Source: a virus (taxonomy: Duplodnaviria > Heunggongvirae > Uroviricota > Caudoviricetes). From it: a stretch of DNA of 16,306 nt. A program made the translations under genes and the position numbers. Shown here piece after piece: positions 2,893-15,403 of the stretch; position 1 is the stretch's first letter; each line of letters begins with the position of its first letter. The notes beneath the pieces are model-generated. The model did not search any database. It was given only the letters and a program-made list of their open reading frames with translations, and had not been told where the DNA came from. The stretch lies in IMG/VR virus record IMGVR_UViG_2563366964_000003; one strand, 5' to 3'.

Positions 2893-2968
2893 TTATCATC
2901 TCCATAAAACAAAACTCGCCGTAGCGAGTTCAGATATAATTTCCACCAAAGGCAGTAGTTGCTGATGC

Positions 2969-2976
2969 TAAGAATT
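2969..2976. repeat. Left copy of the 8-bp target-site duplication TAAGAATT flanking IS1
   Basis: Identical 8-mer immediately outside both IS1 ends. Confidence 0.75.
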
Positions 2977-3031
2977 GGTGATGCTGCCAACTTACTGATT
3001 TAGTGTATGATGGTGTTTTTGAGGTGCTCCA

Positions 3032-3307
3032 GTGGCTTCTGTTTCTATCAGCTGTCCCTCCTGTTCAGCTACTGACGGGGTGGTGCGTAACGGCAAAAGC
3101 ACTGCCGGACATCAGCGCTATCTCTGCTCTCACTGCCGTAAAACATGGCAACTGCAGTTCACTTACACCGCTTCTCAACCCGGTACGCACCAGAAAATCA
3201 TTGATATGGCCATGAATGGCGTTGGATGCCGGGCAACCGCCCGCATTATGGGCGTTGGCCTCAACACGATTTTCCGCCATTTAAAAAACTCAGGCCGCAG
3301 TCGGTAA
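3032..3307 (+). CDS. insA: IS1 InsA (transposition repressor / N-terminal part of the InsAB' transposase), 91 aa
   Basis: Translation [43 protein letters not shown]... is canonical InsA. Confidence 0.92.
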
Positions 3308-3729
3308 CCTCGCGCATACAGCCGGGCAGTGACGTCATCGTCTGCGCGGAAATGGACGAACAGTGGGGATACGTCGGGGCTAAATCGCGCCAGCGCTGGC
3401 TGTTTTACGCGTATGACAGGCTCCGGAAGACGGTTGTTGCGCACGTATTCGGTGAACGCACTATGGCGACGCTGGGGCGTCTTATGAGCCTGCTGTCACC
3501 CTTTGACGTGGTGATATGGATGACGGATGGCTGGCCGCTGTATGAATCCCGCCTGAAGGGAAAGCTGCACGTAATCAGCAAGCGATATACGCAGCGAATT
3601 GAGCGGCATAACCTGAATCTGAGGCAGCACCTGGCACGGCTGGGACGGAAGTCGCTGTCGTTCTCAAAATCGGTGGAGCTGCATGACAAAGTCATCGGGC
3701 ATTATCTGAACATAAAACACTATCAATAA
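3226..3729 (+). CDS. insB: IS1 insB reading frame (expressed as the InsAB' transposase by -1 frameshift at the A6C motif, about 3285-3291)
   Basis: Translation ...[50 protein letters not shown]... is canonical InsB; slippery aaaaaac present in the insA/insB overlap. Confidence 0.88.
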
Positions 3730-3744
3730 GTTGGAGTCATTACC

Positions 3745-3752
3745 TAAGAATT
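3745..3752. repeat. Right copy of the 8-bp target-site duplication TAAGAATT flanking IS1
   Basis: Identical to 2969-2976; overlaps the stop codon of the 142-aa gene. Confidence 0.75.
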
Positions 3753-6965: not shown

Positions 6966-7636
6966 TGCTCCCCAAATACAAAACCAATTTCAGCCAGTGC
7001 CTCGTCCATTTTTTCGATGAACACCGGCACCATCTCGTCAAAACTCGCCATGTACTTTTCATCCCGCTCAACCACGACATAATGCAGTCCTTCACGCTTC
7101 ATACGCGGGTCATAGTTGGCAAAGTACCAGGCATCTTTTCGTGTCACCCACATGCTGTACTGCACCTGGGCCATGTAAGCCGACTTTATGGCCTCGAAAC
7201 CACCGAGCCGGAACTTCATGAAATCCCGGGAGGTAAACGGGCATTTCAGCTCAAGGCCATTGCCGTCACTGCATAAACCATCGGGAGAGCAGGCGGTGCG
7301 CATACTTTCGTCGCGATAGATGATCGGGGATTCAGTAACATTCACGCCGGAAGTGAATTCAAACAGGGTTCTGGCGTCGTTCTCGTACTGTTTTCCCCAT
7401 GCCAGCGCCTTAGCATTAACTTCCGGAGCCACACCGGTGCAAACCTCAGCCAGCAGGGTGTGGAAGTAGGACATTTTCATGTCAGGCCACTTCTTTCCTG
7501 AGCGGGGCTTGGCTATCACGTTGTGAACTTCTGAAGCGGTGATGACGCCGAGCCGTAATTTGTGCCATGCATCATCCCCCTGTTCGACAGCTCTCACGTC
7601 GATCCCGGTACGCTGCAGGATAATGTCCGGTGTCAT
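6956..7636 (-). CDS. exo: λ exonuclease (Redα), 226 aa, intact
   Basis: Translation [50 protein letters not shown]... matches λ Exo over its full length. Confidence 0.97.
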
Positions 7637-8079
7637 GCTGCCACCTTCTGCTCAGTGGCTTTCTGTTTCAGGAATCCAAGAGCTTTCACTGCTTCGGCCT
7701 GTGTCAGTTCTGACGATGCGCGAATGTCGCGGCGAAATATCTGGGAACAGAGCGGCAATAAGTCGTCATCCCATGTTTTGTCCAGGGCAATCAGCAGAGT
7801 GTTAATCTCCTGCATGGTTTCATCGTTAACCGGAGTAATGTCGCGTTCCGGCTGACGTTCTGCGGTGTATGCGGTATTTTCGACAATGCGCTCGGCTTCA
7901 TCCTTGTCATAGATACCAGCAAATCCGAAGGCCAGACGGGCACACTGAATCATGGCTTTATGCCGTAACATCCGTTTGGGATGCGACTGCCACGGCCCCG
8001 TAATTTCTCTGCCTTCGCGGGTTTTGAATGGTTCGCGGCGGCATTCATCCATCCACTCGGTAACGCAGATCGGATGATT
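7633..8079 (-). pseudogene. bet: bet (Redβ) 3' fragment: C-terminal part only (...NHPICVTEWMDECRREPFKTREGREITGPW...KVAA); N-terminal third missing
   Basis: C-terminal translation matches λ Bet; upstream of codon N (8079-8077) the frame hits TAG and homology to Bet is lost. Confidence 0.9.
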
Positions 8080-8201
8080 ACCGGTTCGCTACCAGGGAAG
8101 AACGGGAAGGAAAGGTGAGCACGAATCTGATTTTCAAGGAGTGTCGCCAGAGTGCCGCGATGAAGCGGGTGTTGGCATTTTATCGCGGCAATTTTCAATA
8201 G
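8079..8201 (+). pseudogene. ren: ren 3' remnant (encodes ...YRFATREEREGKVSTNLIFKECRQSAAMKRVLAFYRGNFQ), fused directly to the bet truncation point
   Basis: Plus-strand frame matches my recollection of the λ Ren C-terminus (YRFATREEREGKMSTNLVFKECRQSAAMKRVLA...); recall-based. Confidence 0.6.
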
Positions 8202-8238
8202 ACTATGTACATAAAAATATCATTTTTTTAATACATGT

Positions 8239-8430
8239 CTAATTATTGGACGAAATTGGTTTTTGCTTTGGTTTAGTTAGCCTAGCAATCAAGCCAGAGG
8301 CAATAATGATGATCCAAGCAATTTGATGCAATGCTACTCCAATATAAGAACCTTTATAGATAATAAAGGCATAGATCGCTAGAAACGAAATAAATATCCA
8401 TAACGAAAGTTGATAAATTTTGGCGCGCAT
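8239..8430 (-). CDS. Possible small membrane protein (63 aa from ATG; two hydrophobic segments)
   Basis: ORF in AT-rich cargo DNA, divergent from the lipoprotein operon; weak Shine-Dalgarno; could be a chance ORF in AT-rich sequence. Confidence 0.3.
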   Translation of the reverse strand: MRAKIYQLSLWIFISFLAIYAFIIYKGSYIGVALHQIAWIIIIASGLIARLTKPKQKPISSNN

Positions 8431-8686
8431 ATTTAATCCAATCAATCAGAAAGACGAGTAATCATAGAGGTACTATCACCCGGGTAACTATTGCTATTAT
8501 GAACGGATAGGATAGAGGCTTCAATAACATATGCATCAAGTATGATGGAATATGTAGGTGAAAATGACTTGTGTCAAATTTGTGGAAATGAGTACCATGT
8601 TTCTCTGAAATTGATGTCGTTAATGGCTAGTGATAGTGAACTTTTTTACTTTATAATTCCTTTGGTTATAACAATAAGGTAAATTT

Positions 8687-9247
8687 ATGAAGAAGATAAT
8701 ATTATTAGCCATGATTATTGGTTCTTTAACAGGTTGCGCTAGTGTGCCACCATTGAATTTTTCAACACCTAACGTGGGAGTTAGCCAGAAAAAAATAGAT
8801 GCTGAAATTAAGTCATTAACGGTATCACTTGCTCGTCCAGATGAGCAGAAAGGGGATATCACTGCTGGTATGGAGGCTATAACTCCAATTTGGCGTGAAT
8901 CTTTGCAGGAAGCACTCGACCGAATGACTATTTTTCGTGATAGTTCACCAAATACGGTTAGCTTAAATGTTAAAGTGTTGGCTCTTGACGTTCCTGCTTT
9001 TGGTGTTTCAATGACAACTAAAGCAATTGCAAGGTATGAAATAATCAACCGTGCGAATGGTGATATTATATATACGCAGGATATTGAGTCTACCGGTACT
9101 GTTCCAGCCAGTTACGCATTCTACGGTATTGTTCGAGCACGCGAATCTGTTAATCGCGCGGTGCAAAACAACATAACGCAGTTCTTGCAAGCATTAGAAA
9201 GTGTTGATCTTTCTCGTCCAATGTTTCCTGTTAGGGTAGCTAAATGA
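8687..9247 (+). CDS. Lipoprotein of unknown family, 186 aa (signal peptide plus lipobox LTGC)
   Basis: MKKIILLAMIIGSLTGC lipobox; AAGG Shine-Dalgarno; stop overlaps the start of the next gene (ATGA). Confidence 0.75.
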   Translation: MKKIILLAMIIGSLTGCASVPPLNFSTPNVGVSQKKIDAEIKSLTVSLARPDEQKGDITAGMEAITPIWRESLQEALDRMTIFRDSSPNTVSLNVKVLALDVPAFGVSMTTKAIARYEIINRANGDIIYTQDIESTGTVPASYAFYGIVRARESVNRAVQNNITQFLQALESVDLSRPMFPVRVAK

Positions 9248-9696
9248 AGCGATTATTCGTAATTGCTCCACTCTTAGTGTTGGTTGGATGCGCACAAAAT
9301 ATATCGCCAAATAGTTATTCTGTTGGCTCTGTGGGCATGGTTAATCGAACTATCGCTGGTACAGTTATTAGTGCTAGGGGGGTTGATATCAGTGGGACTT
9401 CCGCGTTAGGCGGGACTGCTGGGGCTGCCGTGGGGGCAACCGCTGGTTCTGCGCTTGGTGGGGGAGTTCGTTCTAATATCGTTGGTGCCGTTGGTGGTGC
9501 AGTCATTGGTGGTATTGCCGGGGCAGCAATCGAATCTTCAGCAACAAAACAAACAGGCATGGAATATGTTGTCGAAACTGAGAATGGGAATTTAATGACC
9601 ATTGTTCAAGGCAAAGATCCGTTATTTACTCAAGGAAGTAAGGTCCTTGTTTTATACGGAAACCCTTCTCGCATAATAACAGACCCGCGTCACTAA
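9244..9696 (+). CDS. SlyB/Pcp-like glycine-zipper outer-membrane lipoprotein, 150 aa (lipobox LVGC)
   Basis: Lipobox; glycine-zipper stretch (IVGAVGGAVIGGIAGAAI); C-terminal KQTGMEYVVETENGNLMTIVQGK resembles the SlyB C-terminal region (KTQGVELEIRKDDGNTIMVVQKQ) as I recall it. Confidence 0.8.
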   Translation: MKRLFVIAPLLVLVGCAQNISPNSYSVGSVGMVNRTIAGTVISARGVDISGTSALGGTAGAAVGATAGSALGGGVRSNIVGAVGGAVIGGIAGAAIESSATKQTGMEYVVETENGNLMTIVQGKDPLFTQGSKVLVLYGNPSRIITDPRH

Positions 9697-9788
9697 CATA
9701 CCTTTTGATTTTGTAAAATCAATTCGTAATAATAAAGTCATCGGAGCTTGAACAACTCCGGTGACTTCTGCGCTAAACGGGGACGTTT

Positions 9789-9890
9789 ATGCGCACATAC
9801 AATCCAAACTCTCTTCTCCCTTCACAGATGCAGAAATGCACCTGCGATTTTTTGCATCCAGCGTCTGACCTCTGCGGAGGTGAAGCGTGA
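9789..9890 (+). CDS. ylcH: Small DLP12-type protein YlcH-like, 33 aa ([33 protein letters not shown])
   Basis: Short ORF whose stop overlaps the ybcN GTG start; resembles remembered YlcH. Confidence 0.55.
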
Positions 9891-11947: not shown

Positions 11948-13030
11948 TTAGAACTGGTAAACCATACCTACAGCAACGATATCATCGGTAGCAACGCCAG
12001 ATGCTTTCGTGAAATCGCTCTTATCAATCAGGTTGATTTTGTAATCAACAAAAGTGGACATATTTTTGTTGAAGTAATAGGTTGCACCTACATCAATATA
12101 TTCAACCAGGTCCTGATCACCCCACGCACCCAAGTCTTTTCCTTTAGATTGCAGGTAAGCAACGGACGGACGCAGACCGAAGTCGAACTGATATTGTGCA
12201 ACTACTTCGAAGTTTTGTGCTTTGTTGGCAATATGGTTATTACCAAAAACAGTCATGTTCTGGGTTTCAGAATAGGTGGTAGCCAGATAGATGTTGTTCG
12301 CATCATATTTCAGACCAGCTGCCCATACTTCAGCATTTTGACCAGATGCATTCAGGCTGTTGTTACCGTAGATAACCTGATTATTAGTGCGGTCAGATTT
12401 AGCATAGGTTGCACCTACACCGAATCCTTCATACTCATAAGTAGTGGAGAAACCGAAACCATCACCATTAGCTTCAGTTACGTCAGTGCGGTCATTTTTA
12501 CCCTGATACTGAGCAGCAAAGTTCAGACCATCAACCAGACCAAAGAAGTCATTGTTACGATAAGTTGCAACACCTGTGGTGCGACCAGTCATGAATACAT
12601 CTGTTTGGGTCCAGGTATCGCCACCGAATTCTGGCAGAACGTCGGTCCATGCACCAATATCGTATGCTACACCGTAGTTACGGCCATAATCGATGGAGCC
12701 GTAGTCACCGAATTTCAGGCCAGCGAAGGCAAGACGGGTTTTATCTTTGGAGGAACCTTGAGATTCAGCGCGGTTGCCTTTGAATTCATATTCCCACTGA
12801 CCGAAACCAGTCAGTTGATCGTTGATTTGGGTTTCACCTTTGAAGCCAAGACGGGCATAAGTAGTATCACCATCATCTGCATCATTAGAGGAGAAGTAGT
12901 GCTTAGCATTAACTTTCCCGTACAGATCCAGCTTGTTACTGTCTTTATTATAAATTTCAGCTGCCTGAGCAGACATCGCCATCAGTACTGATGCAGCTAC
13001 AGCAGAAATTGCCACTGTTAATTTTTTCAT
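11948..13030 (-). CDS. nmpC: OmpC/OmpF-family general porin (NmpC/OmpD-like), about 360 aa with signal peptide; apparently intact
   Basis: Signal peptide [23 protein letters not shown]; porin motifs; C-terminal ...VAVGMVYQF; AAGGG Shine-Dalgarno. The tracked ORF starts 20 codons upstream but MKKL is the plausible start. Confidence 0.9.
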
Positions 13031-13456
13031 CGTGAGCCCTTTTTTTGAACTATTATTAAAAAATGATGTCACTGCGCGATAAATATTCATCTAATCAATG
13101 TGATTATTTCAAGATGTAAGTTTTGCTTTCTCATTTGATTTGTGAAGTAGATCTCTATTTTTATCTGAACTTTTTCTATCGAATCCTATTCATGGCTCTT
13201 GGCTGAATAAAAATAAATCTATTAGCCAATTTATATTAATGGCTGTTATTTATAAGTGCTCTATAATTTGAAGATTCAATTTAAACCAGCTAAAAATAAC
13301 GCTGGAAATTATTTGTTGGTTATTTGTTGAGATTTGCTTATGTATTTGTAGTGGTGTTTTCAATACTCGGTAGCATTCTCGCAAATATCATTTAGTGGTT
13401 TACGTACGTAAAAAATTGGTTATGCTGTTAAGAGTGGTTACTTCGTCACACAGCTT

Positions 13457-14819: not shown

Positions 14820-15113
14820 TTATTGTGAGCAATACACACGCGCTTCCAGCGGAGTATAAATGCCTAAAGTAATAAAACCGAGCAATCCATTTACGAATGT
14901 TTGCTGGGTTTCTGTTTTAACAACATTTTCTGCGCCGCCACAAATTTTGGCTGCATCGACAGTTTTCTTCTGCCCAATTCCAGAAACGAAGAAATGATGG
15001 GTGATGGTTTCCTTTGGTGCTACTGCTGCCGGTTTGTTTTGAACAGTAAACGTCTGTTGAGCACATCCTGTAATAAGCAGGGCCAGCGCAGTAGCGAGTA
15101 GCATTTTTTTCAT
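14820..15113 (-). CDS. borD: Bor lipoprotein (serum-resistance-associated outer-membrane lipoprotein), 97 aa
   Basis: MKKMLLATALALLITGCAQQTFTVQNKPAAVAPKETITHHFFVSGIGQKKTVD... matches Bor. Confidence 0.93.
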   Translation of the reverse strand: MKKMLLATALALLITGCAQQTFTVQNKPAAVAPKETITHHFFVSGIGQKKTVDAAKICGGAENVVKTETQQTFVNGLLGFITLGIYTPLEARVYCSQ

Positions 15114-15403
15114 GGTGTTATTCCCGATGCTTTTTGAAGTTCGCAGAATCGTATGTGTAGAAAATTAAACAAACCCTAAACAATGAGTTGAAATTTCATA
15201 TTGTTAATATTTATTAATGTATGTCAGGTGCGATGAATCGTCATTGTATTCCCGGATTAACTATGTCCACAGCCCTGACGGGGAACTTCTCTGCGGGAGT
15301 GTCCGGGAATAATTAAAAACGATGCACACAGGGTTTAGCGCGTACACGTATTGCATTATGCCAACGCCCCGGTGCTGACACGGAAGAAACCGGACGTTAT
15401 GAT

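Follow-up and report, generated by a model that had tools for sequence, protein, structure and literature searches.

It was not until recently that nanodomain scaffolds of the SlyB type came to be seen as a major stress defence of the outer membrane (OM), and we know of no described member that is not a single protein under PhoPQ control. A locus that departs from this pattern lies in the IMG/VR virus record IMGVR_UViG_2563366964_000003, a stretch of 16,306 nt that is called the window below. Positions 8687..9696 (+) of the window form a self-contained, translationally coupled module of two lipoprotein genes, acquired by a lambdoid phage as a moron, in which the gene of a partner lipoprotein (8687..9247) is followed by the gene of a SlyB-like glycine-zipper lipoprotein (9244..9696). 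The SlyB family itself is known; what is new is a divergent member of it that has a near-obligate second lipoprotein and is mobile.

SlyB is a PhoPQ-induced OM lipoprotein that forms stress-induced oligomeric rings around nanodomains of lipid and outer-membrane proteins (OMPs) (Janssens et al. 2024, as related in bioRxiv 10.64898/2025.12.22.696046 and 10.64898/2026.06.08.730324), and both preprints have its glycine-zipper hairpins wall off these nanodomains upon damage to the outer leaflet. SlyB also has three phospholipid-binding residues. SlyB-like rings, OM stabilisation and a similar role for cardiolipin have been proposed for YfgH (bioRxiv 10.64898/2025.12.22.696046). Another OM lipoprotein ring, carried by mobile elements, is the decameric TraT of F-like plasmids (surface exclusion, serum resistance; PDB 9FS5/9E2V), whose gene is described as chromosomal in origin and recruited by plasmids on several occasions (PMC11733297). 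Among phages, Bor, Cor and Llp are small OM lipoproteins of temperate or virulent coliphages, and bor is present in the prophage studied here. Cor and Llp are each a single protein acting on one receptor, whereas nothing points to a particular receptor for the SlyB-like cassette.

The SlyB-like protein

The preliminary description of this DNA had read the product of 9244..9696 as a SlyB/Pcp-like glycine-zipper lipoprotein with the lipobox LVGC and a SlyB-like C-terminus. The profile and structure comparison that it proposed bore this out, with SlyB as the only significant match in the PDB. In a phmmer search of all PDB chains, residues 2-149 of 150 align to residues 3-155 of 155 of SlyB (7ojf_A, E=1.3e-14), and the next match has an E value of 0.11. 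BLASTP against the chromosomal SlyB of strain MG1655 gave 33% identity end to end (E=7e-13). When the AlphaFold2 (AF2) model was compared by Foldseek with 350,000 PDB chains, 7ojf_A (SlyB13-BamA) was again the sole significant match (E=1.9e-8, prob 1.0, 139 columns).

The alignment is collinear throughout, at 150 aa here and 155 aa in E. coli SlyB (b1641, also called Pcp; PDB 7OJF/7OJG), and the two proteins are alike in having a lipobox, a β-hairpin, a two-helix glycine-zipper hairpin with an Arg in its turn and a C-terminal β domain that ends in P-R. The inter-helix turn carries the common motif GGGxR, in which R84 of SlyB aligns with Arg76, a residue invariant across the 49 sequences of the SlyB-like clade (alignment A1). 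Judged by these alignments, the protein is a full-length but distant and divergent homologue of the SlyB/Pcp family, far more divergent than the slyB paralogues of Yersinia, which are 62-67% identical to SlyB (bioRxiv 10.64898/2026.06.08.730324).

The open reading frame (ORF) runs from ATG to TAA. Its first part (9244..9291, +) encodes the signal peptide and the lipobox L13-V14-G15-C16, in which the Cys codon lies at 9289..9291 and is followed, as read from the sequence, by Ala-Gln. The presence of a lipobox and the lack of an Asp at position +2 agree with the OM sorting signal of the family. Cys16 is invariant in alignment A1, and a Cys-containing lipobox was found in all 55 resolved SlyB-like orthologues. 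The AF2 model, built on 49 homologues (predicted local distance difference test, pLDDT, 70.6), places strands at residues 33-49, helices at 55-71 and 75-101, and strands at 103-146, which is the order of elements in SlyB: β-hairpin, two long helices, C-terminal strands. On the DNA, the N-terminal β-hairpin of this predicted secondary structure corresponds to ~9340..9390 (+), the two-helix glycine-zipper hairpin with the invariant Arg76 in its turn to ~9394..9546 (+), and the C-terminal β domain to 9547..9693 (+). Residues 51-96 contain ~59% Gly+Ala with GxxxG repeated, and a β-rich segment stands at the end of the protein.

By the measures of conservation applied, 9244..9696 is a real gene and not a chance ORF, because it has 581 homologues at E<=1e-3 (many with 65-77% identity), a match over its whole length to phrog_13877 (E=1.4e-98; PHROG annotation 'unknown function'), and low nonsynonymous (dN 0.15-0.28) against high synonymous divergence (dS ~2 or saturated), with dN/dS ~0.1 where calculable. 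Nor is it a fragment of a common chromosomal gene, an outcome for which the preliminary description had allowed. Its scores in Pfam are 21.1 bits against a cut-off of 24.2 for PF05433 (Rick_17kDa_Anti) and 16.9 against 25 for PF13488 (Gly-zipper_Omp), and precomputed matches to PF13488 or PF05433 are carried by many homologues of 65-73% identity. Scans of both cassette proteins and of two small ORFs against Pfam, NCBIfam and PADLOC returned sub-threshold glycine-zipper matches only.

Canonical slyB sits elsewhere in the genome and has no same-strand gene before it, whereas the SlyB-like gene is translationally coupled to the partner gene and travels in prophages and islands. It lies in prophage cargo, outside any synteny with slyA/anmK, and no PhoP box with <=2 mismatches was found between 8446 and 8686, the matches across the window being at chance level. 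Because the gene is not beside slyA and is without a PhoP box, its genomic position and upstream sequence mark it as a slyB paralogue or xenologue, not an orthologue.

Other glycine-zipper lipoproteins of E. coli are YfgH, OsmB and YiaD. YfgH, likewise a two-transmembrane glycine zipper, gave a weak local match to the SlyB-like protein (E=0.009 over 83 residues). A relationship of the partner to YfgI, the product of the gene after yfgH, was rejected (hhalign probability 1.6%). TraT is an analogue and not a homologue: neither its sequence nor the structure of its whole chain is significantly similar to the SlyB-like protein (Foldseek E=0.19-0.48), it is a single polypeptide and its function is tied to conjugation. 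The likeness lies in the idea of an OM lipoprotein ring on mobile elements, a ring that is proposed in the present case, and in the evolutionary pattern, since repeated co-option by mobile elements is seen for TraT and for the two-gene module.

The partner lipoprotein

The partner gene (8687..9247, +) encodes a lipoprotein of 186 aa with the lipobox L-T-G-C, in which Cys17 is encoded at 8735..8737. Residue +2 is Ala, without the Asp of Lol avoidance, and both cassette proteins are predicted to be OM-sorted lipoproteins. The family counts 512 homologues at 60-87% identity, has no Pfam family and corresponds to PHROG 12521, of 'unknown function'; a profile search of 1.84 billion representative proteins found 955 clusters at E<=1e-3 and 97 at E<=1e-30. 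When the two cassette genes are taken together, dN is 0.11-0.29 and dS is saturated or ~2, substitution values that indicate strong purifying selection on both.

The AF2 model of the partner (pLDDT 84) is a two-helix, four-strand α/β sandwich placed behind a long conserved tether. Its structural neighbours are XCC0632/DUF330 (PqiC/YmbA type; PDB 2IQI; score 13.3), an HpaA-like protein (10.4), PelC (10.4), LptE (10.1), PqiC (9.4), CsgG (9.3), TraT (7.1) and LpoB (6.1). The predicted structure thus has the α/β lipoprotein fold of the LptE/PqiC/PelC/CsgG-N type. Sequence identity to these neighbours is 7-14%, and therefore the partner shares a fold with PqiC, LptE and PelC and not membership of their families; the Pfam families of PqiC/DUF330, LptE and PelC gave no match. 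It also differs from PqiC/YmbA, LptE, PelC and the N-domain of CsgG in having motifs of its own and no linked transporter genes. These motifs are the most conserved stretches of the protein, and both lie outside the fold: PPLNFSxPNVG directly follows the lipid anchor at the N-terminus, and (K/R)PMFP stands close to the C-terminal end. They look as would be expected of docking peptides.

Two database names needed closer inspection. RefSeq's newer name for the partner is 'YajG family lipoprotein', after a lipoprotein of similar size (E. coli b0434, 192 aa). The hhalign comparison with E. coli YajG gave a probability of 70.6% over 120 columns in the N-terminal two thirds, partly signal peptide; neither the partner nor 49 other members of its family matched the YajG family PF03923 at the thresholds used, and no NCBIfam match was obtained. 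The name could not be confirmed by these profile comparisons, and yajG is linked to ampG and not to a SlyB-like gene. The legacy label 'UDP-N-acetylglucosamine acyltransferase' is widespread for the partner family in GenBank and UniRef, including phage PhiR30_1, and is carried by the homologues P0121, P0123, P0141, P0161, P0177, P0195 and P0234. It looks like a propagated mis-annotation, because neither the sequence nor the predicted fold supports it. Databases list both cassette proteins as hypothetical, of unknown function or under such wrong names. In agreement with the preliminary description, which had called the SlyB-like gene undescribed, no published function was found for the accessions, the phage name or the PHROG ids.

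Linkage of the two genes

The stop codon of the partner gene and the start codon of the SlyB-like gene share the four nucleotides ATGA (9244..9247, +, read from the sequence), an overlap that corresponds to the two-gene operon already assumed in the preliminary description and that, by its arrangement, is a case of translational coupling. Among 55 resolvable loci of other species the same 4-nt overlap was found in 37 and a 1-nt overlap in five, the rest of the genes lying 0-26 nt apart.

The preliminary description had treated the upstream gene as incidental, and this view has to be given up. A scan with the partner, taking one genome per species, yielded 76 loci, and in 69 of them the SlyB-like gene comes directly after the partner gene, in the same orientation; most of the loci that deviate hold copies with a truncation, a frameshift or an altered C-terminus. 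In the opposite direction, metagenome loci found through the SlyB-like protein have the partner directly upstream in 79/80 cases, and in 72/72 where the contig has room. Viral loci found through the partner have the SlyB-like gene downstream in 34/40, and the 34 viral-contig matches to the SlyB-like protein all lie on contigs of the partner scan save one, at a contig end. The protein distance matrices of the two families are correlated over 68 pairs (r=0.81; Mantel 0/2000). Gene order across these loci makes the partner an almost invariable, near-obligate companion of the SlyB-like gene, and the partner is probably the key to the difference from canonical SlyB.

No third conserved gene emerged from all-against-all clustering of the ORFs of 75 loci, which gave shadow ORFs and lineage-specific neighbours only, and a Pfam survey of 146 flanking genes at 42 dereplicated loci gave 103 families, none of them in more than 4 neighbours. 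In the nearest relative of the E. coli cassette, that of Klebsiella oxytoca (71% nucleotide identity), homology starts at the partner ATG and stops ~20 nt before the SlyB-like stop codon. Taken together, the linkage, the limits of homology and the lack of a third gene or an enriched neighbour family define the conserved unit, at the level of these comparisons, as exactly the two genes.

A few loci show altered versions of either protein. In one metagenome-assembled genome (MAG; L140) the pair is convergent with a second, unpartnered SlyB-like copy of the same clade (8078..8530, −), which has 53-56% identity to the paired proteins and 35% to E. coli SlyB. A 'Ca. Porisulfidus' MAG (L073, 6555..6884) encodes a SlyB-like protein of 109 aa in which the glycine-zipper hairpin is entirely missing. 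In Photorhabdus and Budvicia (L057, L060 and L062, 6001..6555 in the last) the partner occurs alone and has an altered C-terminus without the PMFP tail, and the same holds for six viral contigs of ~10-53 kb (L132-L137).

Distribution and genomic contexts

Both genes are present in 280 of the 5,426 complete E. coli genomes (~5%), always on the chromosome and always at least 99% identical, that is, as one allele; both ORFs are intact in 279 of the 280 carriers. The survey of the ren-ylcH position that had been proposed at the outset also found both junctions between cargo and backbone in exactly 280 of the 5,426 genomes, and because this number equals that of the genes, the cassette is always at ren|ylcH in E. 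coli. A tblastn search of the PLSDB plasmid collection gave no match, so the cassette is not plasmid-borne in that collection.

Beyond E. coli, the 76 partner loci extend over Gamma-, Beta- and Alphaproteobacteria, Chthoniobacteraceae and Desulfobulbaceae, and their settings are heterogeneous. E. coli and Salmonella carry the pair in lambdoid nin regions. In the viral contig L124 it lies in a non-lambdoid prophage between the large terminase and an Ant anti-repressor, a setting that proved unique to this contig when checked across all loci. The site is flanked by IS66 in Pusillimonas, belongs to an island rich in toxin-antitoxin (TA) genes in Bordetella and to an island with umuDC and SRAP in K. 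oxytoca, adjoins pgaABCD at one Xanthomonas locus, and in Stenotrophomonas lies between a TonB-dependent receptor and ispH-lspA-ileS. As far as sequence comparison goes, the two-gene module is ancient, self-sufficient and horizontally mobile, and phages have captured it more than once. A branch of the SlyB family is thus moving horizontally, and lambda-like phages carry the cassette in ~5% of sequenced E. coli.

In the nin equivalent of the Salmonella enterica prophage (L009/L010) the pair is surrounded by the densely packed TA modules PaaA2/ParE, MazEF, YefM/YoeB, HigBA and YdaS/YdaT; one of these two records gives the partner gene as an ORF of 107 aa instead of 201 aa. In Edaphovirga cremea (L002/L015; ~5444..6453 of L002) the pair has an lpxP-like gene for a lipid A acyltransferase on one side and fis-dusB on the other and also adjoins a TumE/HVO_A0114 module; the partner is split into ORFs of 60 and 125 aa in the gene call of L002 and is intact in another Edaphovirga record (P0136, L015). 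This fis-dusB/lpxP-like site is the chromosomal hotspot at which a recent preprint places the Yersinia slyB 'paralog 2'.

Proposed function and alternative explanations

The cassette probably toughens or remodels the host outer membrane. In the mechanism that we envisage, the two proteins would be synthesised in equimolar amounts and join in an OM complex that is hetero-oligomeric. The membrane hairpins of the SlyB-like subunit would line up as a ring or palisade, comparable to what SlyB builds around nanodomains of lipid and OMPs, and the partner may dock beneath or inside this ring by way of the conserved tails at its two ends. It would thereby add a role in specificity, nucleation or plugging that is absent from canonical SlyB. 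In a lysogen the pair could act as a lysogenic-conversion factor that alters OM robustness or permeability under envelope stress, for instance by detergent or bile, chelators, cationic peptides or complement; the Bor lipoprotein and the porin of the same prophage offer an analogy. The chances of such a two-component OM ring complex, acting as a lysogenic-conversion and envelope-hardening module, appear to us evenly balanced. It is favoured because of the full-length homology to SlyB, the near-obligate linkage, co-divergence and purifying selection of the two genes, their independent capture by unrelated mobile contexts and the published ring biology of SlyB. The occurrence of the cassette on chromosomes and islands in unrelated contexts speaks for a function in the envelope that is general in nature and was later taken over by phages.

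Several points weigh against a ring complex of this kind. Linkage, coupling and co-divergence suggest a physical interaction, but they would be equally compatible with sequential action of the two proteins, and no natural fusion of partner and SlyB-like protein was found among the 150 best representatives of the partner, the extensions seen there being unrelated. One genome has the extra unpartnered SlyB-like copy of the same clade, and partner-only variants exist in a few phages and in Photorhabdus/Budvicia; therefore each protein can persist alone. The AF2 model of the SlyB-like protein is only moderately confident (pLDDT 70.6; template modelling scores of 0.52-0.56 to 7ojf), and the protein falls slightly under the Pfam gathering scores of PF05433 and PF13488. 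With regard to expression, a sigma-70-like promoter candidate, GTGATA-16-TATAAT, lies at 8630..8657 (+), ~30 nt upstream of the partner ATG, with 10/12 consensus positions. The region holds 6 promoter-like sites against 4.7±2.2 in shuffled sequence, which makes the candidate no better than chance, and it does not establish expression of the cassette in a lysogen. There is no PhoP box like that of canonical slyB at the cassette promoter, and the AT-rich cargo could be silenced by H-NS.

The preliminary description had put forward superinfection exclusion or receptor masking. A partner-directed SlyB-like ring would then enclose or immobilise OM receptors such as LamB, OmpC, FhuA and BamA so that incoming phages fail to inject, or else progeny adsorbing to debris would fail to inject, as with Llp of T5. 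SlyB does physically encircle OMPs such as BamA (title of PDB 7ojf), the cassette occupies a lambdoid moron hotspot, with TA neighbours in Salmonella (ParE, MazF, YoeB and HigB modules) and TA- or insertion sequence (IS)-rich islands elsewhere, and unrelated prophages have captured it separately. Most occurrences, however, lie outside recognisable phage contexts and among heterogeneous neighbours, and the deep co-divergence across proteobacterial classes is what would be expected of a housekeeping-type envelope function and not of an arms-race gene; the 280 E. coli copies, all at least 99% identical, show no sign of diversification. Neither protein had a PADLOC match at E<=1, both PHROGs are of 'unknown function', and homology to the annotated PHROG exclusion families was not detected. 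Rings of the SlyB type (7OJF architecture) lie in and under the membrane, an arrangement that would leave the surface loops of a receptor exposed. A literature search combining glycine zipper, lipoprotein and superinfection exclusion found nothing relevant, and an EHEC (enterohaemorrhagic E. coli)-phage paper that cites the SlyB paper discusses no phage SlyB. The module is real, but it is not yet evidence for superinfection exclusion, an explanation that we regard as unlikely.

If instead the partner were a docking or plug lipoprotein in the trafficking of OM lipid, lipopolysaccharide (LPS) or polysaccharide, the SlyB-like protein would only anchor or insulate it. That the best structural matches of the partner (DUF330/PqiC, PelC, LptE, CsgG) all serve OM transport machines is in line with this, as are the pgaABCD genes next to the Xanthomonas locus, the lipid A acyltransferase gene next to the Edaphovirga locus and the co-purification of both SlyB and YajG with LptDE (PMC12065857). 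Against it stand the 7-14% identity to those matches, none of whose Pfam families was matched, and the lack of any consistently linked transporter gene or third conserved gene, with 103 Pfam families of which none reaches more than 4 of the 146 neighbours. A cassette that works after transfer between bacterial classes is, moreover, unlikely to depend on a specific host machine, and such an accessory role strikes us as quite improbable. Least of all do we expect the pair to be a functionless passenger in E. coli, recently hitch-hiked and transcriptionally silent in a decaying prophage. The prophage of the window is indeed defective, having lost the stretch between recT/bet and the final part of ren and acquired an IS1 insertion, its cargo is AT-rich, the promoter evidence is weak, and a single nearly invariant allele is found in 5% of E. 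coli genomes. Yet both ORFs are intact in 279/280 genomes and in the plaque-forming phage PhiR30_1, strong purifying selection acts across the family, and the coupling architecture is conserved. The operon of PhiR30_1 is furthermore co-oriented with the pR operon. In the standard lambda transcription map, an operon placed in this way would be transcribed at least in lytic growth, and the cassette should therefore be transcribed at least at that stage in the intact phage.

An extension of the envelope-hardening complex can be put forward tentatively, as one that we think may well not hold in full. The pair would represent an unrecognised two-component class of SlyB-type scaffolds, a hetero-oligomeric ring of an LptE/PqiC-fold protein and a SlyB-like protein, portable across bacterial classes and repeatedly captured by phages, that seals selected OMP/LPS patches in lysogens and so protects them from envelope attack, for example by superinfecting phages, colicins or complement. 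If the pair does form a complex, it would show how SlyB rings can acquire specificity or regulation. It would also be a new kind of envelope-acting lysogenic-conversion factor, with possible effects on susceptibility to bile, antimicrobial peptides, serum or phages, and would assign a role to two families of PHROG as well as to the widely mis-annotated 'UDP-N-acetylglucosamine acyltransferase' family. The system is tractable, because the genes are small and only two in number, the phenotypes are simple and the intact phage PhiR30_1 can be plated on E. coli C.

The cargo segment and the host prophage

The window is a DLP12/lambda-type prophage inserted beside ybhC. From the left it carries int, xis, IS1, exo and, joined to what is left of ren, a truncated recT/bet, then the cargo, and after it ylcH-ybcN-ninE-ybcO-rusA-ylcG-quuD, a porin gene, the lysis cassette, bor, ybcV and ybcW. 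By BLASTN, 8174 is the last position homologous to DLP12 of K-12 ahead of the cargo, and 9703, which precedes ylcH by 86 nt, is the first one after it. The cargo, or moron, which separates the remnant of ren from the ylcH-ybcN backbone, thus spans 8175..9702. K-12 DLP12 has emrE-ylcJ-ybcK-ybcL-ybcM in its place, as expected from the earlier statement that cargo had replaced the usual genes here.

The same description had called this cargo AT-rich, which is true of the segment (39.8% G+C content, GC, against 46.0% for the rest of the window), of its upstream spacer (32%) and of the partner gene (40.5%), but not of the SlyB-like ORF itself (47%). Its placement between ren and ylcH/ybcN likewise stands as an insertion site, with the difference that in the window ren is reduced to its last ~100 nt, which the truncated recT/bet (7633..8052, −) abuts at ~8077. 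Compared with PhiR30_1, the prophage is without ~6.4 kb, gam through P (gam, kil, cI, cro, cII, O, P). Because ren is a ~100-nt remnant fused to truncated recT/bet (~7633..8201), the prophage is, from its gene content, defective. In PhiR30_1, whose host is E. coli C, the same cargo lies between a complete ren and ninB.

The partner gene is preceded by an AAGG Shine-Dalgarno sequence (8675..8678, +, read from the sequence). Downstream of the operon, ~40 nt past the SlyB-like stop, stands a strong 12-bp hairpin (9735..9767, +; folding of 9690..9790 gave -27.2 kcal/mol, z=-4.06), which lies after the end of the cargo (9702) in backbone common to DLP12. The intrinsic-terminator scan called nothing convincing after the operon, this hairpin included, and because no T-run follows it, it could serve as no more than an atypical terminator. 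Within the spacer of 32% GC, an ORF of 68 aa with two hydrophobic segments (8239..8445, −) is divergent from the operon, and two promoter-like sites, at 8577..8549 and 8524..8496, point at it. It had no match in Pfam, NCBIfam, PADLOC or PHROG, is annotated as hypothetical in PhiR30_1 and not annotated in RefSeq genomes, and is present in no copy of the cargo other than those of E. coli and PhiR30_1, homology to other species starting exactly at the partner ATG. It probably lies outside the conserved module.

A lysis or spanin role for the pair was rejected, as the lysis genes of the prophage form a cassette of their own (essD-rrrD-rzpD/rzoD) that lies 4 kb farther downstream and does not include it. 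In the early-left region, IS1 (2977..3743) has terminal inverted repeats of 23 nt and a 9-bp target duplication (CTAAGAATT) at 2968..2976 and 3744..3752; this insertion is absent from the otherwise identical prophages of strains JNQH498 and PEC1009. The only zero-mismatch PhoP box of the window (TGTTTAGGGTTTGTTTA, 15166..15182, −) lies ~55 nt upstream of the start of bor (~14820..15113, −); the SlyB-like cassette has no such box. The gene borD has been reported as PhoP-regulated. Downstream of quuD, an intact porin ORF of the nmpC/ompC type (11948..13090, −) is annotated as OmpC or OmpD in related records; the same porin gene is a pseudogene with an internal stop in JNQH498 and is disrupted by IS5 in K-12 DLP12.

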